In this document: in pieces, positions 37,902-56,913 of the stretch
Numbering within the stretch: position 1 is the first letter of the stretch
Layout: each line of letters starts with the position of its first letter
NCBI GenBank assembly: GCA_002269645.1
Contig: NIVC01004161.1
Span: 1 to 57,372, forward strand
DNA length: 57,372 nucleotides
Source: Macrostomum lignano
Lineage: Eukaryota
Direction: 5' to 3'
Position numbers and translations under genes: made by a program
Notes under the pieces: generated by a model
Databases searched by the model: none
Told to the model about the DNA's origin: nothing
The model's input: only the letters and a program-made list of their open reading frames with translations

Positions 37902-40286
37902 TCAAGTCAGAGCCAGAACCAATTCCAGAAAGATCTTGTCCGCCGTTTGACGAAACCGCATCAAATCGGGCAACAGTCGTTGGCCAATTATATTGGAAAT
38001 GTCAAGGAAGAATCGCTGATTTAAAAGAATTGACCAAGCCACGGAGAGACTGCAATAGATAGAAAAAACTTTGTTTTGTTAGTCGAATTTGTACTATTAA
38101 AATGCAAAACTTGACGAATCGCAACTTACAGGGGCAAGATTGCAAAAATGCTCAGCATAAGCATTTGATTCGATTGGTGTCTTGATGGCGTGTTGTAAAA
38201 CTGGCAGATCACAAACTTTGTGTGCAGAAATAATTGAAGACACGCGAACGCAGCCACAATGAAGACTACAATTTCTGCTGCACCTACCAGGACAGGTCCA
38301 TCACTGATGAGGATGGGAACTCTGGATAGAGCGGCCAATGCAGCGGCTAACATCGTCACCATGAACAGGCCATTGAAGCACGCTTTTCTTGCGACACTCC
38401 AATGCTTCTGCGCATCGCCGAGACCGCGATTCTCACAATCTAATAGCTCCCGGATTTTCTTAGAACATTTTCGAATTTGCTCGGTATTTCTGCTGTAGTG
38501 AGCTAGCGCGTACAACTCGTCGATGTCTGGGTCAGGCTCGAGCGCTCTGCGCCACTCGTTCAGAAATATCTGCTCTTTCGACAGCAGCTCCGCCTGAAGA
38601 CTCATCAGCAGGGAGTGAAAATTCACTTGCAGCATGTTGCCACTGCCGTAGGGCGTGATTTTTATTAGCTTCCGGGTGAACTCTGGTAGAAAGCTGAAGT
38701 CTGGTTCCACTCCGCAGGGAAAGTTGAATCTACAGGGCTCCACATGTCTCCACATGACCTGTTGCAGTTTTTCTTTGGCGCTCTCTGAGTCATCCAGGCG
38801 GAGACGAGCCATAATTACCAAGCAAGCGCTTACTGAAGATGAGCTCGGGAGCGATCGTAGCTTTTCAATGTGCTGAAGAAATTCCTTCCGAGCATCTACC
38901 TGCAGCTTCGGGATCTCGTTGAACAAATGTTGCACAAGCAGATAAAGAAGGGCGTCACCAGTGAACGCTTCGAAATCATTTAGCTCCACCATCGGTAGCG
39001 CAGTGAACAACTGGAATACCCTGTCCGATTCGCGCGCACTGACGCGATTCTTCACGAAATTCAGCAGCGGTGTGACATCTTTCTGGAGTGTACGCAGCCT
39101 TTCAATAATGCGATTTTTTCCTTTTTAAAATCGATACGACCGGCTTTAGACGTAGATTTTAGACGTAGTGTCGCATCCGGCATGAAAAAGTTCGGCATGC
39201 AATCGCCAGGAGTCTTGGTGGCAGTAAGGTAGTTTACTAGCATGCCAAGGGACTCCTTCAGCAATGAGATTAGCTTTTCTTTAGTCCAAGCGCTCTGTTG
39301 ACTGTTGCTATGCCCACTTATCATGAAGAAGAGCAAAGCTTTTGCGTGGCAAGCCCTAAGGCTGCGGATACTCCCTGGTGCCTCTGGAAGTAGACGCTTG
39401 AAGACGAGCAGAAGCAGCACGTACAACTGGCCTTGAATAGTGCTCAGTCTGCGCATGATCTGCTTCTCTTGCAGCTTGAAGCTCACTTTCAGTTGGCCCA
39501 ATTCACCCGATTCAGTATCCAGCTCTAGAACAGTGCAAGCAGAAGTACAGGAGAGGCCTTTTGGAAGCAGTAATCGTACTCTGTCAGCCCTGTTGGGTCT
39601 GCAGCACTTGTAGACTTGGCGTATCTCCTGACTTGGCCGCGAACCATTGTTTGGAAACTTCAGCGTCACAGGATCAACTAAAAATTTATTTAATAGAATA
39701 TTTCAATACTTCTCTTTACCACTCTTTAACTTAGATATCAGTGTTTGTCCCTAAATAAGAATTGTTGGCTTTGCTGCATAAATTTTACCAATAGATCCAG
39801 ATGTTTTAACTCGTCCGTCTAGCACTGGTAGCCTCTGTCCTGCCTTGCCCTTGCACTGACAATCACCATCGAGATGAGCTTGATCCTCGATCTTGAAGCT
39901 CAGCCATTTGATGCTGTCTTTGCCGAGTCCATTTCCCTGAGGGTCAGTCAGGAGGCTCAAACTCCAGCCTTCAGCAAGCGAACCGATTAAGAGCCGTTCA
40001 TCCGGATTGAGCTGTCTTGCTGCATCTTCCAGGCCGTCTGCAGCTCGGCACTGTTTACTGGCGCCTCGATCATTGATGCCAGCTTGGTTCAAATGCTCGT
40101 AAAGCTCAATTGATGCTAGTTCGTCTGGGTCTCGTTTGGAATTGCTGAAGCACATATTTACATTTTTTATCACAGGGATTACAGAACTCAAAACTACGAT
40201 CTACTCAAGAATGAAAGCGCTAAGCAGAACTTACTCTTCGCCACAATCTTCTACAGTGCTGCTTTCTTTTGTTGAGCTGTTTGCAT
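37902..40286 (-). CDS. Mab-21/cGAS-like nucleotidyltransferase-fold protein (cGLR-like) with a C-terminal multi-TM region; contains 1-nt frameshifts
   Basis: Exons about 40291-40235, 40144-39789, 39677-38130 and 38049-37902. GSLAEG motif and Mab-21 helical-lobe signature (VSFKLQEKQIMRRL..QGQLY, HAKALLF, W..E.L..LL, CMPNFF). A frameshift in the A-run at 39114-39119 joins ORF 39061..39669 to ORF 38126..39055. Confidence 0.75.
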
Positions 40287-40760
40287 CACTACTGTAAGTA
40301 AAATCATGCTTTGTATTTAAATCCATTAAAAAGAGTTAATTTTTTACAAATAAACTTACTTTACTTGACGACGCTTTCGACCTCTGGGCCTTAAAAGCAG
40401 GAAGAGAAAGTGTCTGAATAAAGCATTTCAAAGCTTAAAGTGTAAGTCAAAGGTAAATTCAATGCGCTCATTTAGCCAGGCACTGTAGAGTTTTGATGCT
40501 TTGTTATACTTTGCAACAGAAATGCACAGTTTCGCAATAAGCGCACAAGGACCAGTGAAATAACTCGTGCAGAGGTCCTTGTAACAACAATAGACGTAGG
40601 TTTCATATCAATATAGTACAAGGAAATCAAATCAAGTCAATCAAGACAATTATTTCTTACATTTTATCCTCCAATTTTAGCACCAGAATCCTTTAGGATG
40701 GAAATCTGATTGAAAGCGAACCAAAAACGGAAAATCTTGCAACTTTTCCGAGCATATTTA

Positions 40761-40852
40761 AGTAGTATACGTTTTTTTGACACAAAGCCGATTTCCTTAT
40801 GGCGAAATACATAGTAAGTACAGGCCCAAAAAAATGGCAGAGTCCGAAATTT
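40761..40852 (+). repeat. Left terminal inverted repeat
   Basis: Reverse complement of 55981-56072 with one mismatch at 40845. Confidence 0.95.
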
Positions 40853-40932
40853 CATGTGCACGCAGTCTGAAATTCCATGTGCACGCAGTCTGAAATTCCA
40901 TGTGCACGCAGTCTGAAATTCCAAGTGCACGC
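40841..40932. repeat. 4 x 23-bp subterminal tandem repeat (AGTCTGAAATTCCATGTGCACGC)
   Basis: Visible; the right end has only one related copy. Confidence 0.9.
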
Positions 40933-41652
40933 TAAATATCTTTTACGCAACGTGATTATTCAGACGAATTGCATATCCACCTGTCCAAAATACAAGTAAC
41001 CGATTCTAGCAATGGTGACACAAACACACTTCAAAGGATTCCATTCAAGACAAATTTACTCCAAAGCTATTCACACATTTCAAGTGTTATTGAAATATTG
41101 AAAACTTGTGAATATTATCACCCTTTTGAAGAAAGATAGTAAATGATCTATTCTTGAGTGCCTATAGAATTTTTGCACCAACTTGAGCAGATGGTTTACA
41201 GATACTATGTCAACAACTGCGTCAACATGCTTCTTCTTTATACTATATATATATACGAACACACTGACACAGAAAATATTAAATAACTTAAACCAAGTTT
41301 ACATTATACTACTTGTTCAACTATACTTACATCTTAAGTGAAATGAAGCGATCACGTCAGCAGGAATTGGCCGAGCGCTATGTTAAACAAGGTAAGATAA
41401 TCACCTACTCTAGTTCAGTTTTCTTTTTTAGATTGACTGTTCGCTATAGTTTAGTTTCTAGATTGATTGTTGGTTCGGTTTCTGTTTAGACCGATCCTCT
41501 GTTTGTTCAGTCTCTAGATTGATTGTCTGCTAGTTCGGTTTCTGTTTAGACTAATACTCTGCTAGTTCAGAATTTCTAGATTGATTGTCTGCTAGTTCGG
41601 TTTCTGTTTAGACTGATTCTCTGCTAGTTCAGTTTCTATATACATTGTATAC

Positions 41653-42204
41653 ATGCACCTATACCAAATTTCCCTCATCTTATCCATTATTATAGCATTC
41701 AAGAATGGTTTCTTCACGCGGCCACCTCCAGATCAGTGCAAACGCATTTGCCACGACACCACCACATCCAATTCTGCTGCAAGAGCATCATATTCTACAT
41801 CTCTCGCCAGAGTAACCTCGATTCATGTCGAGAGACAGACAACTGAGCTAGATCGCATTTACACAAGAACTGATGTTATTCAGTCAATTAGGCAGCAATC
41901 GAACCCACGACCAACTGACCAACTGCAGTATGCACCACCACCACCATCACCAACCAGCTACAATGACCCAACAAAGCAAACTTGCAGTAAGCCTACAAGT
42001 ACCAAACCAACGACAGCAACTGAAACACCATCATCATCAATTGCTATTTCTACCCAAGTTCAACCGCTGCTAAACTCGCCAATTATTGTACAGAAGGACA
42101 TCAAGTCTGTAAAAGTCTCTCAAATGAGCACAGGCTTCTACCAAGTAGAATTAGCAAAGACCTGTAATACAACTCAAGTATTTGAATATTGGGACCTATC
42201 TTAA
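41653..42204 (+). CDS. Polinton accessory ORF, Thr/Ser/Pro-rich, unknown function
   Basis: 183-codon ATG-initiated ORF in AT-rich surroundings; the hydrophobic N-terminus may instead be sequence upstream of an acceptor at 41695. Confidence 0.45.
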   Translation: MHLYQISLILSIIIAFKNGFFTRPPPDQCKRICHDTTTSNSAARASYSTSLARVTSIHVERQTTELDRIYTRTDVIQSIRQQSNPRPTDQLQYAPPPPSPTSYNDPTKQTCSKPTSTKPTTATETPSSSIAISTQVQPLLNSPIIVQKDIKSVKVSQMSTGFYQVELAKTCNTTQVFEYWDLS

Positions 42205-42459
42205 AAAGACATTTTTTCTATCTCTTCATAAAATTTTGCCAGCAATGTGTCCAAGTAATTGCTCTTTTAGTATATATCAAACAAGTCTGTAATCAATAAT
42301 ATAATCTCTATAAATTCATTATTCTAAAAAATTCTTTCAATTTTATTCACCATTCATTGAAATTATTTAATTCAACATAAAGTCAATATCTTGTACAGTC
42401 ATCATTAAACAAAAATTATTAATCCATGCAAATAATTTTTTTTTCATACGTTTCTTTAG

Positions 42460-43700
42460 CCATGGTCTGGCTTTTGCCTCAACAGTATGATTTAGCTGTG
42501 GTCCAGCTTTTGCCTCAACAGTATGATTTAGCTGTGGTCCAGCTTTTGCCTCAACAGTATGATTTAGCTGTGGTCCAGCTTTTGCCTCAACAGTATGATT
42601 TAGCTGTGGTCTGGCTTTTGCCTCAACAGTATGATTTAGCTGTGGTCCAGCTTTTGCCTCAACAGTATGATTTAGCTGTGGTCCAGCTTTTGCCTCAACA
42701 GTATGATTTAGCTGTGGTCCAGCTTTTGCCTCAACAGTATGATTTAGCTGTGGTCCAGCTTTTGCCTCAACAGTATGATTTAGCTGTGGTCCAGCTTTTG
42801 CCTCAACAGTATGATTTAGCTGTGGTCCAGCTTTTGCCTCAACAGTATGATTTAGCTGTGGTCCAGCTTTTGCCTCAACAGTATGATTTAGCTGTGGTCC
42901 AGCTTTTGCCTCAACAGTATGATTTAGCTGTGGTCCAGCTTTTGCCTCAACAGTATGATTTAGCTGTGGTCCAGCTTTTGCCTCAACAGTATGATTTAGC
43001 TGTGGTCCAGCTTTTGCCTCAACAGTATGATTTAGCTGTGGTCCAGCTTTTGCCTCAACAGTATGATTTAGCTGTGGTCCAGCTTTTGCCTCAACAGTTT
43101 TTAGCCGTGGTCCGGCTTTTTTGCCTCAGCAGTATGATTTAGCTGTGGTCTAGCTTAAAACTGCATCAACAGTGATTTAGCTATAGTCCAGGCTTAACTA
43201 CCTCAACGATGATTTAGCTATAGTCAAGGCTTAACTGTCTCAACAGTAATTTTAGCTGTTGTCCAGACTTAACTGCCTCAACAGTGATTTTAGCTGTGGT
43301 CCAGGCAACTGTCTCAACAGGGATTTAGCTGTAGTCCGATTAGCTTAACTGTCCAGTTATTTAGCTGTGAGCCAAGCAGCAGCACCCGTCTCAACAGTGA
43401 GAATTAGCTATGGTCAGCTTTACCTCAACTGTGATTTGGCTGCTGTGGTCTAGCATAACTGACTCAACAGTAATTTTAGCTGTAGTCGTCCAGCTTAACC
43501 ACCCGTCCAGTTTTATAACCATGGTCCAGCTTAACCACCGTCTCAACGTACAGCGATTTAGTCGTGGTCCAGCTTAACCGTCTCAACGTACAGTGATTTA
43601 GCCATGGGTCTAGTAGCAATTAACCGTATCAATAGTGATTTAGCCGTGGTCCAGCTTAACTGTCTCAACACAGTAATTTAGCTTAGTCCAAACAGCATTT
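42460..43700. repeat. 36-bp tandem array inside the Polinton, homogeneous to about 43100 and then degenerate
   Basis: (CTTTTGCCTCAACAGTATGATTTAGCTGTGGTCCAG)n. Confidence 0.9.
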
Positions 43701-44393
43701 GTGTGTCAACTGCACTGACTGCATGCGGTTATAGCAGCGGCAGTCATTATAGTCCCAACAAGCTGCGCGTCGCAGCATGATAGTGTAACTCTATATAGCT
43801 TCTGCTCAATATAGGACTGCAAAAGCTGAGTTACAACTATACCTTTTTCTGTTTGAAAAGTAACACTCTATATATAGGTTACTCAAGCAATCTCTTGTCA
43901 CCGTGCGAGCTAAAAAATTCCAACATGCAAGCAAAACTTTCAATAAATTAATTTCATAGCACCGCGTGCAGCTTATTTTTACTCTAAAATCCAAGATTGC
44001 TAATTTTTCAAGTCGCAAAATATTTTAATTACATTCTACTTGAGAACAAAACCAATCTAATGAAGCAGCAACCAGCAGTCTTCTTATTAAACGCTTGCCA
44101 TCGTGTTACTCTTGCAAATTTATAACTAGTGTGCCTAAGATTCATTAATTTTATTTTATAAAATATCAACCTACATTTGCGTAAAATTAGACCTAATCAT
44201 GCAACCCACCCTAGAAACTTATGCCACCTTTGGCACGCAACAATGTCTTAATCAGCACGCAACAATTAAATTTGTTTACTAGTTCACAAACAGCATGCAA
44301 TGCTTGCTATAAATACAAGACCCGAAATGGTCAATTTTTCATGAGCTCAATCATTACAGCAAAAGAAATACTATATTCAATTGCTTGTAAGAC

Positions 44394-45592
44394 ATGGCAG
44401 CTTGCATCAAGACGGAGTCAATTGTACGCTCCGACTCGAGTCCGATTTTTTACGTTGGAGAGCAGTCTACAACCACGACTGGTTCGTCCTGCCAGTTTCG
44501 ATCTATTGCGTGGAAACCATCAATCGAGTGTACAAAATGGTACCCAATTATATTGCAAACCAAGGCTCCAATGGAGCTTTTTCGTGGAATCGCAGAAAGG
44601 CCAGAGCTCGATCATCCGTCTTGCAGACATGACTCTCGCGACGCAGTAAGTGTCCAATTTCATCCAGACAGCTGCGATAAGGAACTCTTCCACTCTCTCC
44701 GGTGAGCACCATATTAAATTTATACAATTAATTTTAGGAAACTATATTCATAATTTATATAATGTTTTGCAGTCAAGTCGAAAAAGGTCTATCGGTCAAG
44801 TTGAACGAGATTCAAGATGCTCGACCCTTGGCACGACTAACAAAACCAGCTCATCAGCATGCTAACGACGTCCTCGAGTTTGTGCCTCAACAATGGCTGG
44901 CTATAAAGCCTGCTTACCCTTGTGCCACAATCAGGATCAGCAACGATCATCCACACGGGAAGGAGGTGTCCATTTCCGATTTCAAAGGTGTCAGCGGTAC
45001 CTACCAAATGACAGTGCAAGCAACGAGCTTGTATTGTCCAAAAGGCTGCCTCGTCTGGCGCATTACATTCGCTGTGCGCTCTCTGACACTCATAGAATCT
45101 TCCGACAACATGTTGCAGCGCCTCGACATGTTCAAGGGAGTGCTTGCACACCTACCCGCGACCAAGTCAGCAATTAGAAGCAGGAGTCCGTCCCCAACAT
45201 CTACCTGTGAGCAAGAAGAAGCAAATGAACAAAGCCTGCAGAATTCAAGCCAGGTGACACCTGCCAAGTCACCTGCAAAGCGTCGGTCTACCACCACCGT
45301 ATCGAAGAAGTCGACTACATCGAATGCAGCGCCAGCCTCTATTGAACCGCCGCCTAAAAAGCAAGTTCGAAAACGCAGCGGTGCAAAACAGCAAAACAAT
45401 TCTGCCGAAGCTGGTGCAGATGGCACAGACTGGGTGGAGGCTCCACCAGCAAAGATCTTGGTGAGTACACCTGCCTCTGGAACCAGGGTAGCGTCCAAGG
45501 AGACAGCATTTTTAAAGCGTGCTGCTGCGGACGCTACTACAGCTAGCGTGTCTTCATCGGACGACTCGTACAGCAGCTCTGATGATGAGTAA
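44394..45592 (+). CDS. Polinton spliced gene, 375 aa, unknown (SSB/OB-fold candidate with a disordered tail and acidic C-end)
   Basis: Exon 44394-44701, intron 44702-44772 (gtgagc...ttttgcag), exon 44773-45592; the phase 2 junction joins ORFs 44394 and 44762. Confidence 0.65.
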
Positions 45593-45802
45593 CAAAATTT
45601 TTGACTAATTTTATCCAAGTTTTAACTAACTTATTCCACTATATTTATCAAATTTTTGGCTAGGGAAATATTATTTTTTAGGGAAAAGCTCAAAACATTT
45701 TTTGCTACTCCTTGTACGCTAACCAGGTTTTGTAATTTAATATTAGAATTTACGATAGTATAGTCATGTTTAACTTTTCTTATTATTTATTTTCCGTTTT
45801 AG

Positions 45803-46360
45803 CGACTTGTCCTATTAATAGTTACTGCGAGTCTGAAGCTGCACCCGTTTGAAAAATTTGATTTAAAGCAGACCAAACAGAAGCTACAGACCAGAAACCG
45901 GTTTTGCAAACTATTCCTAAGCCGACCAACAATGCTAAAGACAATTTATTCAAATGCTAAAATCCAACTTTATCCAGCAGGAAAACTAACTATATATGGC
46001 TGTAAATCAAATTCTCAGATAGTCTCAGTTTTACGATTTATCAACGACACTATTAATTGTGTAGATTTTGATTCAGTAAAAATTCAGAGCAGTACCTATG
46101 TCGGCTTTATTGGTCATCTTTGGCCAAAATTCGGTTTCTCTAGTCTAAAAAGATATGCAGGCTACTATTCGAATTATCTGGTTGGATACGATGCAGAAAA
46201 TTTCCCACAAGCAGTTTCTGTTAGATCAGCATCAAAACCAAGGCTTTTTTGTAACATATTTTTTTCGAAAAAGTTTGTTATTATGGGCGTTCAAAACACT
46301 CATGAATTGAATAATATTCTTAACCATGTCAAGGATTTTTTAATCTCTGTTAATAACTAA
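45803..46360 (+). CDS. TATA-box-binding protein (TBP)-like protein encoded by the Polinton
   Basis: Two-repeat TBP-core pattern: LIVTASLK..FDLK, QLYPAGKLTIYGCKS (cf. LIFxSGKMVCTGAKS), VKIQS (cf. FKIQN), YDAENFPQAV (cf. YEPELFPGL), NIFFSKKFVIMGVQ (cf. LIFVSGKVVLTGAK). The frame is open 43 codons upstream of the ORF-track ATG, back to a ttttag acceptor at 45802. Confidence 0.75.
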   Translation, partial: RLVLLIVTASLKLHPFEKFDLKQTKQKLQTRNRFCKLFLSRPTMLKTIYSNAKIQLYPAGKLTIYGCKSNSQIVSVLRFINDTINCVDFDSVKIQSSTYVGFIGHLWPKFGFSSLKRYAGYYSNYLVGYDAENFPQAVSVRSASKPRLFCNIFFSKKFVIMGVQNTHELNNILNHVKDFLISVNN

Positions 46361-46583
46361 ACTTAACAAGTAAACAATTGCTGTCAAATCGCAGTTGCGA
46401 TGCATTCTTTTACAAACATTTTGTCTTTTTTTATTTATTTACCAATTGTTTTCTCTAATAGTAAACGTGTCAGCTATACCTATAACTAACCAAATCATCA
46501 TTTTTCTTACAGCCGCAAATGACAAACCGGATCATCTATTAATATTATGCTCGATACGCTCGTTGTCGAGCTAGGTGCACACA

Positions 46584-47318
46584 ATGCCGCGTGCACAATG
46601 CCAAATCTGCAGAAAAAAGTTCAGTAATCAAGCCGAGCTGCATGCTCACTCGCATGGTGCTTGTTTTTCACCGCAACGATTACTGACCGGATCGCTGCAA
46701 AACCTGATCGAAAACCCACCAGATGGGTGGTCCATCGCTTTGCGCGAGTCAGCTCATCGTGGTCGGGTAAATTTTGTCGAATTTACTCCCACTCTTGAAC
46801 AACAAGGCAACAGCTCTGGCGAGTTACTTCCTGGCGAGTTGATTGCGTCTTTAAGAGAACCAATATTTAAAATATTGGAAAAAATTGGCTCACCCAGTTT
46901 ATTAATAAGAGTCTGCTTTCACTTGAAAGTGACACTATTTCGACCGAAAACAGCAGCAGACGACAACGATGGCTCGAGCAGCGAAGAGATCATTTCGGTC
47001 TATTTTAATACCAACATTGCGACAATATCATTTGATGAGACGATTGCAAACAGTGACATGCTGTTATCTCCCGAGGCCTACAATGACTGGTTCGCACGCG
47101 TTATTAATCAGTTGTTAATAAAAATTGACAATTTTCAATCTCGAGGTAGTAATTGGCAATATAGAGCAATCGAGCAGCTAGACTTGATGCTCTGCGTTTA
47201 TCGCAAAAGCCATGCAAGCACACTGTCAACAAATACGTCCCACGGTGGTGTGGGGGCGGGCGGCGGCAGTGGTGGTGGTGGCGGCGGTGGTGGTGGTGGT
47301 GGTGGCGGCGGTGGTGGT

Positions 47319-47350
<32 letters not shown>

Positions 47351-47681
47351 GCGCGGGGAGTCCGGTCCAGTCCGGTCCGGTCCAGTCCGGTCCGGTCTGG
47401 TTAAGCAGCAATCGTTTAAAGTTCCAGTCTCAATCGGTCGCAAAGCTGGAGCAGTACTGCTTCTAAAGCCGCACAGAGCAGTTTAAAGCATCAAGACTAT
47501 TTAAGAGTCTTACACAAGCGACAACTTGTGTTTTCGCGCATGCAGTCCATTCGTTCTCGAAAACAGAAAGTTTTTTTTGATGCAACAAAGAAAACTTGCA
47601 CTAAGCTTCTTCGATACGAAGCGATCCTGGACAAGTTCAATTAATTCGCTACCCTTTGGACACTGGCACTTGGCTAATTAA
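46584..47681 (+). pseudogene. polB: Protein-primed DNA polymerase B remnant: N-terminal zinc finger and GS(G/N)W domain fused to the extreme C-terminus; catalytic core deleted
   Basis: CQICRKKF..L..H zinc finger and IDNFQSRGSNWQY..I..L typical of Polinton PolB N-regions. After about 47460, in other frames, SKAAQSSLKHQDYLRVL..MQSIRSRKQKVF/LMQQRKLALSFFDTKR...SLPFGHW* matches the Polinton PolB C-terminus. Confidence 0.75.
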
Positions 47682-47973
47682 TTAACAATATGCTCTGATC
47701 TCTTTTGTTGTACAAAGTAATAGCATGCTATAGAAGACTGTAACCCATCATTAATTTTTTCATTGATCATTATTTACAATAAATAAATGATACCGGCATT
47801 CGTTTAAATTATAATTTTAGCACTTTTTTGTGTTTAATTATTTGAAAAAGTATATTTTTTATAGTTAGATTCTCAAGACTAAGCTTGTGTTTGTAGTAGA
47901 CGTAAATGTAGTGCTATCGTTCATGTTTCAAGAAAAAAAACTTTTTTTTAAACTTTCAGCTACAAGAATCGAC

Positions 47974-48456
47974 ATGAATCCCGAGCAGCAGCAGCAACAA
48001 CAACTAACTGATCGTAAGCTTTTAGTTGAACGTCTATACGATTCGGCAACGATTCCGACCCGAAAAACTGTCGGGTCGATCGGGTATGATCTTTGCGCTG
48101 GCGTCGATGGTACCATTCCGGCCTACGAGTCCCGGAGTGTGCGAACCGGACTCAAAATTCGCTTACCGCCTGGTACCTATGGCAGGATAGCGGGACGTTC
48201 CAGCATGGCTCTGCACAGCTTATTTGTTGGCGGTGGCGTAATCGACCCCGACTATACTGGTGAAATCTGTATAGTCTTGTTTAATTACAGTCCGGAAGAC
48301 TTTGAGTACTATGCCGGGCTCAGTATTGCACAACTGGTTCTGGAGCAGGCCGTGCTTGCTTCAGTCTATGTGACTGAAGCAGACAATTCGATTCGGATGA
48401 TTGAGCCGCCGACCAAGCGGCGCGGCTTTGGCGGCTTTGGCAGCACTGGCCAATAA
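47974..48456 (+). CDS. dut: Trimeric dUTPase
   Basis: All five motifs: GYDL, GRSS, GVIDPDYTGEI, IAQL, RGFGGFGSTG. Confidence 0.95.
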   Translation: MNPEQQQQQQLTDRKLLVERLYDSATIPTRKTVGSIGYDLCAGVDGTIPAYESRSVRTGLKIRLPPGTYGRIAGRSSMALHSLFVGGGVIDPDYTGEICIVLFNYSPEDFEYYAGLSIAQLVLEQAVLASVYVTEADNSIRMIEPPTKRRGFGGFGSTGQ

Positions 48457-48547
48457 GTATAATAATAATAATAAACTGATTTTTTTCTTTGGTGATTGGT
48501 GCACTATGCGAGAGCTTTGTAAATACTATAAGCAATTTTAAAAATTT

Positions 48548-48991
48548 ATGCCTAAAATATATGTTGTAAAAATGTCTCCAGCGAAAGATCGAGGTTTTAA
48601 AAAGAAAAAGAAGAGCATTCGTAAAAAGAAGAAATCTATTAGAAAGATTAATAAAAAGCAACAAGGTTATGGTGTCGTAAATTGGTTAATTAATCATTTA
48701 CCATTTGAAGCACATTTACCCGGCGGATATCAGTTTTGTGGTCCAGGTACGCAACTGCAAGCTAGGCTAGCAAAAGGACAACGAGGAATTAATCGGCTTG
48801 ACAATTTGTGCATGCTTCACGACGTGGCCTATGATAAAAATTCTGACGTGCAAGAGAGGTTAAAAGCTGATAAGCTATTAGAATCTGGTGCACGAGAGAT
48901 TGCCCACGATCCGTCTACTGGTTGGAAAGAAAAACTAGCTGCGAAGTTGGTTACCAAGGTTATGCAAGTTAAGCAACGCTTTGGTGCTTGA
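48548..48991 (+). CDS. Parvovirus VP1-type phospholipase A2 domain protein (PLA2X-like) with a Lys-rich N-terminus
   Basis: PGGYQFCGPGT (Ca-binding loop) and DNLCMLHDVAY (HD catalytic helix). Confidence 0.9.
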   Translation: MPKIYVVKMSPAKDRGFKKKKKSIRKKKKSIRKINKKQQGYGVVNWLINHLPFEAHLPGGYQFCGPGTQLQARLAKGQRGINRLDNLCMLHDVAYDKNSDVQERLKADKLLESGAREIAHDPSTGWKEKLAAKLVTKVMQVKQRFGA

Positions 48992-48993
48992 AA

Positions 48994-49683
48994 ATGCAGC
49001 AGCCATACAATATGCAACTAGCTCACGATTCTACATTTATTATTGCTGGACCTTCAAACTCGGGTAAAACTGAATGGACGTTGCGTTTGTTGACTGAACG
49101 AAAAGAATTATTTGATAAAAAACCGTGCCGTCTTGTTTGGTGCCATGGATCAAGTTTGAAACCAGACGATCAACAACGAATTAGAACATGCTGGCAAAAA
49201 AGCGGTCTTGACCCTATTGTTTTTGTACCCGAATTCACACCACAGATGATTAATCGTTTTTTACCACACGATTTGGTTGTTGTTGACGACTTGCAAAGCG
49301 AGATTGCTAAGTTGCCAGAATTTACTAGTATGTTTACAAAGCATGCGCATCATATCCCTTTGACTTGTCTGTACCTTTGTCAAGGTCTTTTTAACAAGTC
49401 TGATCCAGAAGCACGCATGCGAAGTTTATCAGCTAGTTATATTTGTCTAACTCGTAGTGTGCGCGATCGAACCACAGTTGAACATCTCGGTCGACAAATG
49501 TATCCGCGTAATAGTAGGTTTCTAGTGAATGTGTATGAAGACGCAACAAATAACAAACCTTTTTCATATTTATTCATTGACCTGCGGCAAGTGACACCAG
49601 ATTTTTTACGATTGAGAACAGGAATATTTTCTGGTGATGAACAAGTTGTCTATACTCGTGAATGTGATGCAAAGTTTGTGTAA
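48994..49683 (+). CDS. FtsK/A32-like DNA-packaging ATPase
   Basis: Walker A GPSNSGKT, Walker B LVVVDD, FTKHAHH...LCQGLF. Confidence 0.9.
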   Translation: MQQPYNMQLAHDSTFIIAGPSNSGKTEWTLRLLTERKELFDKKPCRLVWCHGSSLKPDDQQRIRTCWQKSGLDPIVFVPEFTPQMINRFLPHDLVVVDDLQSEIAKLPEFTSMFTKHAHHIPLTCLYLCQGLFNKSDPEARMRSLSASYICLTRSVRDRTTVEHLGRQMYPRNSRFLVNVYEDATNNKPFSYLFIDLRQVTPDFLRLRTGIFSGDEQVVYTRECDAKFV

Positions 49684-49740
49684 TATTATTATAAGCAAAT
49701 TATAAACTGTTGTCAATATTAGTTTGTGTTTTATTTCAAA

Positions 49741-50730
49741 ATGAGTTTTTACGTTTTTTTGCCGTCAAACGATATCAGTTACGAAACCAACTCGCCTAAT
49801 GAATTTCGAGTGCGACTAACTGAACCAATAAATTTATTGAACGGATTCTTCGAGGTTGCACTAGTTGAATTACTGTGCCATGGAGCAATTACGACGCCAA
49901 ATGCTCATCGTGAGCGTCGATTTGAAGTTCCATATTTTGCGGACATTGACTCAATAATACGATTAAAGAAAAACTATTGGGGTCGTGTTTGGGCAGAGGC
50001 AGACTTGGATGCTTACGTTTCCTGGCAACCGTCTGGTACAGATGAAAAATTTGCCTGGCTTTTACGAAATTCAGGCGAAAAAACTATTGGATTAGAACTA
50101 CCAGTTACATTTATGGACGCTTTCAAATTTGACTCTTGGAAGAAACTTTCTGGACTTGTCTCGGAAAAATTATCAAAACCTGCCGCTGGTAGTGTACAAC
50201 CACCGGATGGTTCATACTTGGATTTGATAAAAAGTCTCGACAATACTCTAGCGCTAGTACCTGAGAACTATTATGTTTTTTATTGTGTTCTATCGCCTGG
50301 TGAAGCTATACGACTTGTTTCGCATGGAGACTATCTTCGAAAAACGGAAGGAGAAGTGTACATCAAAGTACACCAATATTGGTTGAGAAATCGTGTTTGG
50401 CGCATTAACAAAACCTACTTGGATGCTGTGCTACCTTCTCCGATGCCTAGTAAAACGGTTTACATGTACTGTTACACAGATATAATCGAGTATCAAGCAG
50501 TGGGAAGTACATCAGTACCGTTGCTTCGAGTTGTGGAACTCCAACAAAAGAAAAACGGAGAACTTATACGCGATAGCAGTGCATTGCAAACACCCTACTA
50601 CTTGAAAACAAATCGACAACAAATTCACGAGATTTCGATTCGACTATCGGACCAGCGCGGAAAACCGTTTAATTTTGATCCGGGAGCACACGTTGTTGTC
50701 GTACTGCATTTTAAACATAGGTCGGACTAA
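49741..50730 (+). CDS. Minor capsid protein (penton)
   Basis: Starts MSFYVFLPSN..YETNSPNEFRVRL..PI.L...FEVALVE and ends VYMYCYTDIIEYQ.VG....PLLRVV...I.IRLSDQRG.P..F...V.VVLHFK, the Polinton penton signature. Confidence 0.85.
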   Translation: MSFYVFLPSNDISYETNSPNEFRVRLTEPINLLNGFFEVALVELLCHGAITTPNAHRERRFEVPYFADIDSIIRLKKNYWGRVWAEADLDAYVSWQPSGTDEKFAWLLRNSGEKTIGLELPVTFMDAFKFDSWKKLSGLVSEKLSKPAAGSVQPPDGSYLDLIKSLDNTLALVPENYYVFYCVLSPGEAIRLVSHGDYLRKTEGEVYIKVHQYWLRNRVWRINKTYLDAVLPSPMPSKTVYMYCYTDIIEYQAVGSTSVPLLRVVELQQKKNGELIRDSSALQTPYYLKTNRQQIHEISIRLSDQRGKPFNFDPGAHVVVVLHFKHRSD

Positions 50731-50786
50731 TTTATAAGCAAAGATTAATTGTGTAATAGAAAATTTTGTGAATTTGTTTTGTAAGA

Positions 50787-51215
50787 ATGAGCGAACTAAC
50801 AGAAAAAGGAAAACAAAATGCTCGCTCATTGTGTCAGTGTGCTTTTTTACTACAAATTGTTTATCGGCTAAAGCATCCAAAGCAGAGAAAAAGTTTTTTA
50901 CAAACACTTTCAGAGTCGGAGATACGATGTCTAGTAGACTTTCTGTTTAATATTATTAGTGGACGTATTAAAATTAGTAACTGTAACAAAAGACGACTTG
51001 AGAAGCATCGCAGATATATACGCCAGCTTTTGGAACAGAAGACTCCAATTACTGCAAAAAGGAAAATACTTGTCCAACACGGAGGATTTTTACCTTTTTT
51101 GGCTCCAATTATTGCCGCTCTACCTGCTATAAGCACTGCGCTTGGGATAACGTCTGGAGTAGTTGGTACCGCCGCGGGAGCAGCGAATTTAATACGATCA
51201 ATTCAACGAAAGTAG
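50787..51215 (+). CDS. Conserved Polinton virion protein with an adenovirus pX-like C-terminal hydrophobic segment
   Basis: Basic helical domain followed by QHGGFLPFLAPIIAALPAI, similar to adenovirus pX GG(F/I)LPxLIPxIAAAIGA. Confidence 0.7.
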   Translation: MSELTEKGKQNARSLCQCAFLLQIVYRLKHPKQRKSFLQTLSESEIRCLVDFLFNIISGRIKISNCNKRRLEKHRRYIRQLLEQKTPITAKRKILVQHGGFLPFLAPIIAALPAISTALGITSGVVGTAAGAANLIRSIQRK

Positions 51216-51225
51216 TAGGAATATA

Positions 51226-51915
51226 ATGCGAACTAACGAGAGTAGTAGTTTTCAACGAATGTATCTAGTACCTGAATCTGTGTATCAATCTGCATGTCAA
51301 GGTGCAGAGCAAGGATCGTCACCAACTGCTGAGACACCTCGAAAAACTGAAGTTTTAGACGCACCGCAAGATGCTCTGGCAAAAAATATGGTGGAAATGA
51401 GAGACCAAATGGATAACTTGGACAAGGAAATGGAAAAGGAGCCAAATTACACAGCTCAATTGAAACGAAGCAGATTGGAAGACAAACTTTTAAAATTGCG
51501 CAAAGTCTATCGCACTGGAGACGAGGACAATCTGTCACTTGTTCGCAAAGGGACTACTGTAAGAAGTTCATATGCCAGCGAATCAAGGGAAATTCCTAAA
51601 GTTTTTTTACCACGTTTCGAAGCTCTCGCTCAAAACCTATTTTCGGACATGGACAAGAATGCAGAACCAATGCTGGCTAATTTGACTGATGCCGAGATAC
51701 AAGATCTCATGGAATATGTTGTTCGAGACAGACCGCTTAAGCGACACGAGACTCAACCGCCTAGTGGACTAAAAACATTTTTAGACTTTCTTCGAAAACG
51801 TGGAATCGCAGCAAACCAAATCGGGCGTCATGTACGAAACGAGCTAATGTCTGCTCCAAAAACTGTTGCAAAGGAGGATCTTAGTCTGTTTGAAAATTAT
51901 CAAACACTGAATTAA
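51226..51915 (+). CDS. Polinton hypothetical protein
   Basis: 229-aa ORF with an N-terminal RMYLVP motif and a coiled coil, tightly packed between core genes. Confidence 0.7.
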   Translation: MRTNESSSFQRMYLVPESVYQSACQGAEQGSSPTAETPRKTEVLDAPQDALAKNMVEMRDQMDNLDKEMEKEPNYTAQLKRSRLEDKLLKLRKVYRTGDEDNLSLVRKGTTVRSSYASESREIPKVFLPRFEALAQNLFSDMDKNAEPMLANLTDAEIQDLMEYVVRDRPLKRHETQPPSGLKTFLDFLRKRGIAANQIGRHVRNELMSAPKTVAKEDLSLFENYQTLN

Positions 51916-52027
51916 GTTGTTTTAAAATTACAGATTACGTTTTAACAAAATTGATTCGAGCACTATAAGCTTTTTAAAAAGGTTAATTTTTTGTTTATGA
52001 AAAATATATAGTTTAATAAGACAAACC

Positions 52028-52216
52028 ATGTCATCTATCTTCCAAAAACTTTTGATTCGTCTCTGTGAGTTTTTTTGCATAAAATCTGAATGTGTGCCGT
52101 TTCTGGGAAAGGAGCACAACGAGGATACTGACGGAGATTCGATCGAGGCTTCGTTCTTTTGTTGCAACTGTCAAACGACTAGCATCAATCTAACTGATGA
52201 TGAAGCGAGTGCGTAA
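52028..52216 (+). CDS. Small Cys-rich ORF overlapping the integrase start
   Basis: 62-aa ATG ORF filling the gap between genes; no recognised motif. Confidence 0.3.
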   Translation: MSSIFQKLLIRLCEFFCIKSECVPFLGKEHNEDTDGDSIEASFFCCNCQTTSINLTDDEASA

Positions 52217-53357
52217 GGAAATTGAAGAATTTTTGACGGATGCTTTTTTTAACTTGAACAGGCCTACTTCATTTAGTGGTAACAAGACTATACTTGTTCG
52301 TGAAGTACGTAAAAAGTTTCCACAGATTACGAACAAAGTTGCAAAGCGCGAAGTTGATAATTGGGTGCGATCAACAAATGAGCATCATTTATTTCGAAAA
52401 ACACGACGAAACTTTCCAACTCCAAAAATTAGTGTGCCACCAGTTGCAAAGTTTCAGTTTCAAATCGATTTGGCAGATTTACCTCAATACAAGACGGAAA
52501 ATCGAGGTTATCGTTACATACTTGTTCTTATCGACTGTTTTACTAGAGTTGTACGACTAAGACCATTGCGTACAAAGAAGCCTTCAGAAGTTAGTCAAGT
52601 ATTACTAGAGATTTTTCGAAGTGGTTTTAAGCCTGTTTATTTACAAGGTGATGCTGGTATGGAGTTTCTCGGAAGAGCTACACGTCAAATGCTGAAACAG
52701 GAAGGAGTTCGATTTTTTGTTAGCCAAAGCAATTACAAGGCAAGCATGGCTGAACGATTTATCCGCTCGTTAAAGGAACGTCTATTACGATACTTTCGAG
52801 CAAAAAATTTACCTCGATGGTTTGACATTTTACCGCAATTGGAAGATAATTTCAACTCTAGTCCTCATCGATCCTTGAGTGGAGAAACACCAAAACGGGT
52901 AGAGACAGACCCGCATTTACAAGGAATTTTGTGGGACAAAATGTTTGCGAAGTCGTACACTAAAAAGAATGAGAATAAATTTAAAGTTGGTGATTGGGTT
53001 AGAATTACACGACGTCGAGGAACATTTGAAAAAGGATACACTACGACTTGGAGTAATTCAAAATATCGCATTCATCGTGTACACTTGACAGACCCGCCAA
53101 TGTACGAATTAGTGGACCCTGAAGATGGATTTGAAGTGCTGAAAGGAAGGTTTAACCAAGCGGAACTAATGTTGGTAAACGAGACAGATGAAACACCTAA
53201 TGAAATTGAAAAAGTTATTGAAACTGATCGAGCGAAAAATGGAAGTCGTCTGTATCTAGTAAAATGGAAAGGTATGCCAATCTCAAGAAGTCAGTGGTTA
53301 AACGAAAATGATCTTGACGCAAAGACTGCTAAACTATTTTCTAAAGTGTATAAGTAA
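52197..53357 (+). CDS. int: Retroviral-like (rve) integrase with a C-terminal chromodomain
   Basis: DDE: FQIDLADL, LQGDAGMEF, KASMAERFIRSLK. Chromodomain EIEKVI...YLVKWKG......WLNENDL. Confidence 0.95.
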   Translation: MMKRVRKEIEEFLTDAFFNLNRPTSFSGNKTILVREVRKKFPQITNKVAKREVDNWVRSTNEHHLFRKTRRNFPTPKISVPPVAKFQFQIDLADLPQYKTENRGYRYILVLIDCFTRVVRLRPLRTKKPSEVSQVLLEIFRSGFKPVYLQGDAGMEFLGRATRQMLKQEGVRFFVSQSNYKASMAERFIRSLKERLLRYFRAKNLPRWFDILPQLEDNFNSSPHRSLSGETPKRVETDPHLQGILWDKMFAKSYTKKNENKFKVGDWVRITRRRGTFEKGYTTTWSNSKYRIHRVHLTDPPMYELVDPEDGFEVLKGRFNQAELMLVNETDETPNEIEKVIETDRAKNGSRLYLVKWKGMPISRSQWLNENDLDAKTAKLFSKVYK

Positions 53358-53398
53358 CACATGAATTGGGATTGCATGACGAAGAGAAGACTGTTGAA

Positions 53399-53857
53399 AT
53401 GGATCCTATTTTTGCTTTTTATTCTGGTCCGAATAGATCTGCTGAAGGTGGAGGTGGATATGGCATTCCTGTTTACGAAGGTTACGGTTTTTTGTCAAAT
53501 TTGGCGGACAGATTGGTGTATCCTGTACTACGCAACGCAAAGAAAGATTTCTTGGATCGTGGTCTGGAGTATTTGAAAAGTGCGACAGCAAAAATTGGTA
53601 TGGGTCGGAAGCGTCACTTGGACACAGAATCGAGCGAAGAGATGTTTAATACAACTGCAGTTTCGAGACCAAAGCGAAGGAAAAGAACCAGTGGAGTGGC
53701 TATAAGCTTAGGAAAGAAGAAACGGCAAAAGAAACGACGAACAAGACAGTGTGGAAAGGGACGCGTGAACAAAAGAAAACGCAAGAAGACCGGTGGTATA
53801 GGAAAACGTCGAACTGCTACTGCAAGCAAGAAACTTTTTAGTCTGTTTGAAAAGTAG
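53399..53857 (+). CDS. Arg/Lys-rich putative DNA-condensing core protein
   Basis: GGGGYG..YEGYGF N-terminus, amphipathic helix, then a very basic tail (KRRKR, KKKRQKKRR). Confidence 0.7.
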   Translation: MDPIFAFYSGPNRSAEGGGGYGIPVYEGYGFLSNLADRLVYPVLRNAKKDFLDRGLEYLKSATAKIGMGRKRHLDTESSEEMFNTTAVSRPKRRKRTSGVAISLGKKKRQKKRRTRQCGKGRVNKRKRKKTGGIGKRRTATASKKLFSLFEK

Positions 53858-53858
53858 C

Positions 53859-55180
53859 ATGAACCATTTGCTTGGACCTGATATTGCTGCTCTTAAAAGT
53901 GAATTGTCGCTATTTGATCAAAGTCCTGTTCAGTTTAGTGTTTTGGATAATCGATATACTAACATTCAACCGCAACATGGTATTACAAAAGGATCACCTA
54001 TCGAATTTGAAGTTGTGCCTGCAGGCGATTTGTATTTGGATCTACAAGAAACTGTGCTCACGGTATGCTTCAGCGTTAGTGATAGTGAAGGTGAACCTAT
54101 AGATGCAACGAAAAATTTTGTTTGTTTGAATAATTTGGTTATTGGAACATTGTTTGAGGACGTTCAATTTACTATTGGCGATACTGTAGTTGAAGGTGGT
54201 AGTTTTATGTATCCATACAAGGCTATGCTTCTTACATTACTGGAATATGGACATACAGCTCAGAAGGCTGGTTTACTGCCGTGGGGGTTTTACAAGGATA
54301 CAGCTGGTAAAATGAATGCAACAAGTGAAAACGATGGACGAACAAAGAGGCAGGCGCTCATTGCTAACAATAGGCGGTGCACTGTATCGGGGCCGTTATT
54401 CTTGGATTTGTTTCGTCAGCCTCGGTATCTACTATCAAAGACACCACTACGGATCAAGCTCATACCGGCAAAAAGTAAATTTGTCCTGAGCGGGTCAACA
54501 TTAGAAGCTGGTGCGGTTTTAAAAGACTATGAGATCAAGTTTTTGCGTGCAGAACTACGATTGCGGTTTGTTCAACCCTCGCCGAGTGTTATCAGTGCAC
54601 ATGCTCATGGACTTAAAAGTCACAATGCATTATATCCGCACCGAAGTCTAAGCCTTGGTACGTTTACTATACCCGAGGATCGTCTAGCCATACGCATGAA
54701 AATTTGTTTCCTAGTGGGGTACCACGGCTTTTATTGATGGCAATCGTAAGCAACAAGGCATTCAATGGAAGCATGGACACAAATCCGTTCAACTTTGAGC
54801 ATGCAAATGTGAGCAGCATTGGTGTGTTTGTGAATGGAGACTCGGTACCATCGCGTCCGCTGCAGACAAACTTTGGAGATGATTGTGTGACAGAGTATAA
54901 TTTTTTGCTACAACAGCTTGGAATCTATCTACAGGGACGAGATATTGGATTTAATATGCTGGATTACGCCAATGGTTACTCAATTTTTGCATTCAGTCTT
55001 GGAAGTGAACCTGGTGTCGGACGGGGAGTGCAACTGTATAAGGAAGGAAATGTAAAACTAGAGTTACGCTTCAATGCTGCAACTAGTACCGTGTACAACG
55101 TCATATTTGGAGGTATATTTGACAAGCAACTGCAACTGACTGAACTTCGCGACATTGTTCCTGGCACAGTATGGAAGTAA
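53859..55180 (+). CDS. Major capsid protein (double jelly-roll hexon) with a 1-nt frameshift at about 54675
   Basis: KSELSLFDQSPVQFS, PIEFEV....LYLDLQET, MYPYKA, GPLFLDLFRQPRYLL. The second frame ENLFPSGVPRLL..V.N.AFNGS...NPFNF joins if one G is added in cccgaggatcg. Confidence 0.9.
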
Positions 55181-55734
55181 TTGATTCTATCCTAGATCGT
55201 GGTGTAACAGATCGCTTCCTTCGCAATGTTGTATCGAAATTGTGCGCACATTTTTTAAATGTTGTATTTCTTGGTGTTTTTCCTCAAAACTTTGTTGGTG
55301 GACTTAGACGCTTACCTTTAGACGGTAAAGACTATTTTTTTATCGTTAATACTGACGTCTCCAACCTGCCCGGAAAACATTGGGTATGCGTTTGGGTTTA
55401 TGGTCATCGAGCAGGTCGCGGTAGCAAACGACTTGGTGAATATTTTGATTCTCTTGGTCTAGTACCATTGCCAAGAATAGCAAAATGGCTAGGAAAAGAA
55501 TGTGGAAATTCGAAAAATTGGTGTTATAGTCGCTTTGCTATCCAAGACCCACAGAGTGGAAGTTGTGGATTTTGGGTAATTTTTTATATTTTTCATAAGT
55601 TGACTACCAGAGGAAACCTAGAGTGTTTTATTCGAAGCGTTTTTAAACGGAATATAATTCGCACTGGTTCGTTTCGATACTTGTATGCTAAATTACGCAA
55701 TTTTGTTTTACGAGTGCTGCCTCAATATTTGTAA
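55171..55734 (+). CDS. Adenain-like cysteine protease (maturation protease)
   Basis: VNTD....PGKHWV (His), YFDSLG (Asp), IQDPQSGSCGFW (Gln/Cys). Confidence 0.92.
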   Translation: MEVIDSILDRGVTDRFLRNVVSKLCAHFLNVVFLGVFPQNFVGGLRRLPLDGKDYFFIVNTDVSNLPGKHWVCVWVYGHRAGRGSKRLGEYFDSLGLVPLPRIAKWLGKECGNSKNWCYSRFAIQDPQSGSCGFWVIFYIFHKLTTRGNLECFIRSVFKRNIIRTGSFRYLYAKLRNFVLRVLPQYL

Positions 55735-55980
55735 ACTCGCTAATTTGTGCGTCAAATTGTGTTTGTATCTAGTTGAAATATACAATACTGCTTGAAAAGA
55801 AGAATTTAAATGCGTTAAGTTATACGCGAAATAAGCTTTGTGTCAAATTGAATTTTGGTTGGGCTTGTAATTAGCTGCATTCATTGCGGATAGAATTTAG
55901 GTGGATAGACAGGTGTTTGCGTAAAAGTGATTCAGCTAATTGGTTAATTCATTGCGTAAAAGCTAGTTTGCGTGCACGGC

Positions 55981-56072
55981 AAATTTCAGACTCTGCCATT
56001 TTTTTGGGCCTGTACTTACTATGTATTTCGCCATAAGGAAATCGGCTTTGTGTCAAAAAAACGTATACTACT
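55981..56072 (-). repeat. Right terminal inverted repeat
   Basis: Ends ...GTATACTACT; inverse of 40761-40852. Confidence 0.95.
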
Positions 56073-56913
56073 GAGCCAAACGCACCATTAGACTGCTCTG
56101 GGGCATGAGAATCGGCTGTGTTGTAATCTGCGGCAACCTGCTGGGCGGTGCCATCTTGCTGTTGAGTTCCCGCAGGTGGTGGCAGCTGCTGGGCGGTGCC
56201 GTCTTGCTGTTGAATTCCCGGCAGGTGGTGGCAGCTGCTGGGCGGTGCCGTCTTGCTGTTGAATTCCCGCAGGTGGTGGCAGCTGCTGGGCGGTGCCATC
56301 TTGCTGTTGAGTTCCCGCAGGTGGTGGCAGCTGCTGGGCGGTGCCGTCTTGCTGTTGAGTTCCCGCAGGTGGTGGCAGCTGCTGGGCGGTGCCGTCTTGC
56401 TGTTGAATTCCCGCAGGTGGTGGCAGCTGCTGGCGGTGCCGTCTTGCTGTTGAATTCCCGCAGGTGGTGGCAGCTGCTGGGCGGTGCCGTCTTGCTGTTG
56501 AATTCCCGCAGGTGGTGGCAGCTGCTGGGCGGTGCCATCTTGCTGTTGAATTGCCGCAGGTGGTGGCAGCTGCTGGGCGGTGCCATCTTGCTGTTGAATG
56601 TCCACAGGTGCTGGCTCGCAGATGCCGGGAGGCTGCTCATTAATGATAGCAATGTCGCTGTCCTCAGTCTCCTCACCGGTTGGCACTTCGTACAGTAGGC
56701 TGCCCGGACTGTCCATGCGAATCTGCTTTCTCTGATAACCGGGAAATGTCTAGCCGACTGAGCAGCGAGTGGGCGTTGGAATTGTGGCTGCTGCTGCTGC
56801 TCAACAAAGTCATCATCGCTGTTACAGCCGTCTCTAATTACACCGTTTATTAATTGGCTGAGAGCCTGTCGTGCAGCGGTTTGCTCTCCGGCTATTTGAT
56901 GTGCTTTCTGCAT
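56073..56913 (-). CDS. Hypothetical coding sequence with a 48-bp (QQQDGTAQQLPPPAGI)n repeat, truncated by the Polinton; contains indels
   Basis: ORFs 56068..56913 and 55949..56716 are alternate frames of one GC-rich coding-like tract that runs into the TIR at GAFGS. Confidence 0.45.
56140..56600. repeat. 48-bp tandem repeat
   Basis: (CTTGCTGTTGAATTCCCGCAGGTGGTGGCAGCTGCTGGGCGGTGCCGT)n with single-base indels. Confidence 0.9.

Follow-up and report, generated by a model that had tools for sequence, protein, structure and literature searches.

In the adenovirus E2B region a shared ATG mini-exon gives a start, by cis-splicing, to a frame without an ATG of its own, and in composite terminal exons of the IgM type a donor within the terminal exon competes with polyadenylation. 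In flatworms the 3'-terminal AUG of the spliced leader (SL) can act as the initiator (Cheng et al. 2006, via PMC9851317); passages of PMC9851317 put the share of trans-spliced S. mansoni transcripts with the leader AUG in frame at 28% and mention >40 cDNAs that need it. Accessible sections of PMC8629364 describe SL trans-splicing and operons of Macrostomum lignano host genes, with donors of the type GT[G/A]AG, and excerpts of PMC12582326 state that flatworm acceptors are often common to cis- and trans-splicing, cis-splicing being rare at the acceptors that resolve operons. On the viral side, the vTBP of beta/gammaherpesviruses acts at TATT late promoters (PMC7162547, in its accessible part), and a figure legend in PMC8502044 names a TBP-like gene for related MELD viruses. 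Leader-AUG initiation in flatworm host genes and a TBP-like gene in a related virus are known. In the literature searched, which mostly left out subscription journals and supplements, we found neither an SSB-TBP splice arrangement nor the use of a leader by Polintons; the Polinton papers PMC11161782 and PMC10748475 yielded no passage on splicing or leader use, and PMC8502044 holds no word beginning with 'splic'.

The locus described here differs from E2B and IgM in that a whole upstream domain would be added by splicing and the host leader AUG would offer a second route. As in the flatworm cases, the leader has a terminal AUG with which a frame can open; unlike them, the genes concerned belong to a virus-like element and not to the host, and this use is deduced from sequence. 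The leader, the YTNCAG acceptors and the short spacers are those of M. lignano operons as described in the sections of PMC8629364 mentioned above, whereas the block lies inside a Maverick and those operons consist of host genes. The window, that is, the whole stretch of DNA analysed, is 57,372 nt of contig NIVC01004161.1 (forward strand) of M. lignano; all coordinates refer to it, and L numbers denote the genomic loci compared. A host dynein heavy chain gene with introns rich in tandem repeats (Pfam MT, AAA_9) lies at 3982-36940 (+), and the frames at 38126-40200 (-), beside the left end of the element, give a weak Mab-21 C-terminal match (E=0.0014) and are possibly a cGAS/Mab21-like host gene. 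The Maverick/Polinton element itself extends from 40761 to 56072, with the following features.

40761 to 40864, plus strand: left terminal inverted repeat, 104 nt, begins AGTAGT, 96% complementary to the right arm
44394 to 44701, plus strand: SSB-like gene, exon 1, carries the ATG; the gene corresponds to database model P0001 (375 aa)
44702 to 44772, plus strand: cis intron of 71 nt, GT..AG, phase 2
44773 to 45592, plus strand: SSB-like gene, exon 2, acidic tail in the 375-aa product when the donor is read through
45461 to 45466, plus strand: splice donor within exon 2, phase 0, after codon 332; consensus GTRAGY after a Leu codon (protein P-x-K-x-L/V-S, the slash marking the junction)
45787 to 45802, plus strand: TBP acceptor, pyrimidine tract and YAG
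45803 to 46360, plus strand: TBP-like frame, 185 codons, full two-repeat core, first ATG at 45932
46507 to 46512, plus strand: polymerase acceptor TTACAG, where the host leader is joined in one contig of run X7
46584 to 47486, plus strand: protein-primed DNA polymerase, 5' remnant with its own ATG and a C2H2 finger
47974 to 48456, plus strand: dUTPase, with a TTTCAG acceptor 14 nt upstream of its ATG
48527 to 55734, plus strand: right-hand block with PLA2-like, ATPase-like, penton-like, core pX-like, integrase-chromodomain, major-capsid-like and protease genes
55969 to 56072, minus strand: right terminal inverted repeat, pairs with the left arm

The ATPase, penton and capsid labels are ones that we assume from motifs and gene order, without a family match. 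The assignment to Mavericks/Polintons is based on terminal inverted repeats starting with AGT, on a retroviral-type integrase (Pfam rve, 4.5e-8, plus a chromodomain) and on a protein-primed polymerase B, recognized by Pfam DNA_pol_B_2 in the sister copies L067, L069 and L072. Pfam also returned Adeno_PX (2.5e-6), a PLA2-like domain (3.6e-9) and, weakly, Peptidase_C5 (E=0.043), and the major-capsid-like gene is split over two frames in the window copy. A 6-bp target-site duplication was present in 3/3 other copies with both ends found, three further copies with only one end in the fetched stretches standing outside this count. No duplication was seen at 40755-40760 and 56073-56078; the window copy may have arisen by recombination or by a join in the assembly. 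Inverted repeats, 6-bp target duplications, integrase, pPolB, PLA2-like gene and protease are likewise found together in adintoviruses (PMC8502044, in the part available). The first element gene, at 41342-42204 (+), has an apparent ATG exon, a Pro/Thr-rich frame and, near 41391, a GTAAGA donor. It is followed by a 33-nt tandem array at 42420-43700 that decays rightward.

The initial annotation had proposed that the TBP-like gene depends obligatorily on the host leader for its start codon. Its reading of the frame holds: the frame opens at 45803 right after the acceptor TTATTTTCCGTTTTAG, which ends at 45802 and whose TAG is an in-frame stop. Pfam identified TBP (E=2.2e-7), and the AlphaFold model (pLDDT 88.9) contains the two-repeat saddle core; its best Foldseek matches are TBP chains over the whole core (E about 2e-7), with a TM of about 0.44 that reflects a loose relative placement of the repeats. 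In agreement with the earlier description, the frame and the model show no ATG for 43 codons even though the first strand (residues 4-11) and helix (residues 21-30) are encoded there. Up to 45940, the sole ATG in any frame of the TBP exon is that at 45932 (codon 44), and a start at this position would drop both elements, since they precede the first Met. By itself a run of 43 codons without Met is unremarkable, as the Met frequency of the element gives P about 0.51.

We then looked at the other copies, for which conservation of the acceptor had been suggested as a check. The acceptor stands directly before TBP codon 1 in 58/60 loci, across six subfamilies whose TBPs are 28-64% identical; the two remaining loci have lost the TBP 5' end. 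In 2/58 loci (L049 and L050) the pyrimidine tract itself holds an in-frame ATG, 11 codons upstream, and the same ATG is out of frame in the sister copies L054 and L059. A spacer ATG at 45766 was rejected as a start, being out of frame and missing from sister copies. The window copy has no in-frame ATG upstream of the frame, and the leader AUG is in frame with codon 1, as had been noted. The TBP-like gene needs a spliced 5' piece.

The homologs of the TBP-like frame bear on the form of its product. The four distant homologs, 169-190 aa long, are stand-alone proteins, and three of these (P0008, P0009 and P0013) start 2-3 residues ahead of codon 1, an architecture that would be expected of a leader-started product. 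Among the close homologs from ENA/Logan (P0004-P0007), P0004 and P0005 carry '...LQ' just ahead of codon 1 at the protein level, which would resemble an acceptor read through. Word-based protein searches with the frame, weak ones covering near and longer lengths, gave no match at E<=0.001, and scans of viral contigs for it gave none either; a bacterial metagenome locus was rejected as a chance match of 32 residues. In sister subfamilies a deoxynucleoside kinase follows TBP (L051:2240-3619 (-); L067:102-800), joined to it as one frame in the L051 group and a gene apart in the other groups; it is absent from the subfamily of the window.

Upstream of the TBP-like frame lies a gene that is likely to encode a viral single-stranded-DNA-binding (SSB) protein. 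Its look-alikes in the Atlas, at 0.95, are clusters of Nucleocytoviricota in which 10-17% of the members carry DUF2738/DUF5871, and DUF2738 is presumably a viral SSB, hence the label. A Pfam search of the protein (44394-45592) gave no match and its single-sequence fold is of low confidence (pLDDT 34), so that the label draws on the Atlas look-alikes. The UniRef name of P0001, 'VASt domain-containing protein', looks wrong, given these viral look-alikes and the empty Pfam result. Gene models of the P0001 cluster in the database are 374-378 aa long and end in the acidic tail, without TBP.

As an alternative to the leader, the initial annotation had pointed to a cis donor in this gene, and this now appears to be the likelier route. 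The donor reads TTG/GTGAGT in the window, begins at 45461 and was found in phase at the same position in 23/23 loci, chosen to cover all six subfamilies, with 28 near-identical copies represented by one; the intron that it would form with the TBP acceptor measures 259-619 nt across these loci. In 10 further loci the donor was present in 5/5 that retain the TBP 5' end. Counted over six subfamily representatives, 4/6 positions are invariant at the donor (K-x-L-V-S), as compared with 1/110 in the linker before it and 0/41 in the tail after it. The Val codon at the donor is GTR in 6/6, against a background of 125/298 (42%), which corresponds to about 0.005-0.013 if the lineages are independent; the test is modest on its own because 2/26 other invariant degenerate columns also have all-purine third positions. 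Away from donor sites V-S was encoded by GTRAGY in 1/23 cases, and the Leu codon next to the donor varies freely. Within the disordered linker the donor stands out as an invariant island, a pattern that points to constraint at the nucleotide level.

Up to the donor the exons add up to exactly 332 codons; splicing out 45461-45802 therefore predicts an SSB-linker-TBP fusion of 517 aa (332 + 185). Because the in-phase donor is kept in all 23 loci, we consider the cis-spliced fusion the likelier form, and the TBP-like frame is likely to be an alternative last exon of the SSB-like gene. Since donor and leader are both phase 0, this arrangement obtains the in-frame leader AUG for free. A conserved donor under nucleotide-level constraint means that a route to an ATG independent of the leader has been kept, and with an ATG exon available by cis-splicing in 23/23 loci the obligate dependence first proposed is not supported. 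The use of cis introns by the element is consistent with this route. Reading through the donor would give the 375-aa SSB-like protein with its acidic tail, the form seen in RNA contigs.

From the stop of the SSB-like gene to the TBP acceptor, the spacer measures 124-490 nt. Five subfamilies have poly(A)-like hexamers at a distance of 53-92 nt ahead of the acceptor, regardless of spacer length, a pattern that was spotted after the fact and carries no shuffle control; at that distance the window's own subfamily has no such hexamer. This placement looks operon-like. If cleavage and polyadenylation of the upstream mRNA took place in the spacer, the TBP acceptor thereby freed may take the host leader, whose AUG in frame at 45803 would give an optional free TBP.

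For the leader itself, host identity and SL sequence, both called for as checks, were confirmed: UniRef lists the upstream protein under M. lignano, and 30 genomic SL-RNA loci end in TTGCATG/GTAAG, with control matches at 0. We examined 8 of 24 listed runs, all as contigs; none is recorded as RNA, and their RNA nature is a guess. The 71-nt intron at 44702-44772 is spliced in contigs of 6/8 runs; run X1 has no intron joint and may be DNA. Among the contigs listed, 45460/45461 is crossed unspliced in X1, X4, X7, X9, X11 and X13, so that read-through is a common form. Neither a leader joint nor a cis joint at 45803 was seen among the contigs listed for the eight runs, where contigs show presence and not absence, and cover of the TBP exon is patchy in most of these runs. 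One X7 contig starts 12 nt upstream of the TBP acceptor and contigs of X4 and X6 cross it unspliced; these may be pre-mRNA or DNA.

A leader junction was found at the next gene. One X7 contig carries 23 letters of the host leader, present in the SL locus and absent from the window, joined at 46512/46513 ahead of the polymerase gene. This single contig from a single run matches a 95%-identical subfamily, of the type with its own polymerase ATG, at 17/17 tested variant letters. The element family is therefore leader-spliced: the part of the initial proposal that gave element RNA a host leader stands, at the polymerase acceptor, while the obligate dependence of TBP is unsupported.

We then studied the start of the polymerase gene in the six subfamilies. 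Two subfamilies, those of the window and of L054, have a genomic ATG as polymerase start (M-P-R-x-Q-C). The acceptor ahead of it is out of frame, at a distance of 14-71 nt, or of 82 nt in two copies that have decayed. The remaining four (the L041, L043, L045 and L051 groups) have an in-frame phase-0 TTCCAG acceptor instead, at 22 distinct loci, where it is followed by P in 21 and by L in 1. Relative to the finger Cys, TTCCAG sits at -12 in three of these subfamilies, which is the ATG position of the two ATG-type ones, and at -24/-27/-30 in the fourth, so that indels there keep the frame. Where CAG-type copies have a long open frame, the next Met comes 81-114 codons beyond the first finger Cys, and in the L045 group an in-frame ATG precedes the acceptor by 19 codons. 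Over 15 loci, the interval between the TBP and polymerase acceptors showed no donor or ATG/GT mini-exon common across subfamilies; the SSB donor could reach the polymerase acceptor by exon skipping. As the ATG is replaced by an in-frame TTCCAG, the leader likely supplies the start codon, and we think it fairly probable that the leader AUG initiates the polymerase in the four CAG-type subfamilies. A borrowed start appears better supported at the polymerase of these sister subfamilies than at TBP. The TBP tree favours neither type of polymerase start as ancestral.

The window polymerase lacks about 3.16 kb of core found in a sister copy, and the window copy and three near-identical copies that were checked keep the 5' part only. 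With 28 matches at >=99% identity, the three checked sharing the loss, window-type copies are likely a recently expanded non-autonomous derivative. The loss sits at a G-rich simple repeat (47240-47480). An Endonuclease VII-like domain precedes the pPolB core in the frames of L067, L069 and L072.

How, then, does the TBP-like gene obtain its start? If the leader AUG were the only one, TBP would be a separate gene of the operon and the donor would be kept for some other reason, such as a U1 site tuning 3' end formation or a protein motif. The in-frame AUG, the host SL loci ending in ATG, the leader received by the next gene, stand-alone homologs that start about codon 1, hexamers at -53 to -92 in five subfamilies, the read-through of the donor in RNA contigs and the same design at the polymerase of four subfamilies all fit this reading. 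It needs, however, a second explanation for an invariant consensus donor in phase with the acceptor in 23/23 loci, which it must call a coincidence or give another job, and no subfamily has a conserved ATG-for-CAG swap at TBP, unlike at the polymerase; we judge it unlikely. The same favourable points apply if both forms are made, with a leader-started free TBP as the main functional product and the cis fusion as a minor regulatory form, and the sharing of acceptors, common in flatworms according to the excerpts of PMC12582326, adds to them. That the donor is under selection speaks for a role of the fusion, and we give this second possibility little credit as well.

Translation of unspliced RNA from the 45932 ATG or from a non-AUG start, with an incidental acceptor, would agree with the X7 contig that starts 12 nt before the acceptor and with the X4 and X6 contigs that cross it, but conservation extends over codons 1-43, which make up the first strand and helix, and in six subfamilies the acceptor keeps its place at codon 1; such a start is most improbable. 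We thus retain the cis-spliced SSB-TBP fusion as the preferred reading; the read-through, the stand-alone homologs, the hexamers and the literature on shared acceptors keep a leader-started TBP plausible beside it.

The role of the TBP-like protein was considered in the light of the motif TATAAG. The element has eight TATAAG on the plus strand, each 21-233 nt ahead of a different right-hand gene (window 48527-55042), and none on that strand in 40761-48500. In 5/6 stretches examined (the window, L067, L069, L071 and L072 among them) one lies 48-54 nt ahead of the penton-like ATG. The raw count is within chance in the window (7 vs 6.8) and in L064 (9 vs 4.8, a number reached by 16/200 shuffles); it is the placement of this candidate late promoter, and not its count, that appears notable. 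The TBP-like protein is likely a viral late-promoter factor at the TATAAG sites ahead of virion genes, by analogy with the vTBP of beta/gammaherpesviruses (HCMV UL87), also a TATA-binding-like viral factor with a variant TATA before late genes. The viruses are unrelated; the comparison is a functional analogy for the TATAAG sites, to which binding of the TBP-like protein is putative.

Taken together, these data suggest a scheme in which the left block (SSB-like, TBP-like, polymerase and dUTPase genes), with an acceptor 0-71 nt ahead of each start, would be processed by host splicing in the manner of a host operon. Joined at the acceptor of the polymerase gene, the host leader would probably give the polymerase its start in four of six subfamilies, and the right block would run from the TATAAG sites, switched on by the TBP-like protein. 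An operon-style left block with a leader AUG for the polymerase in 4/6 subfamilies, and a TBP exon that may use both leader and cis fusion, with TATAAG late promoters, is on balance probable; towards the whole scheme, with a cis-fusion TBP, an optional leader form, an operon-like left block and TATAAG late genes, we lean slightly. Animal Maverick gene expression is largely undescribed in the literature searched, and this locus offers a scheme that can be tested, with ATG-type and CAG-type subfamilies in one genome as a natural comparison. The scheme also explains why gene callers miss such genes. If it is true, the essential viral polymerase of four subfamilies would depend on a host RNA found only in flatworms, and such elements would be tied to their host lineage and readable only where the leader ends in AUG.
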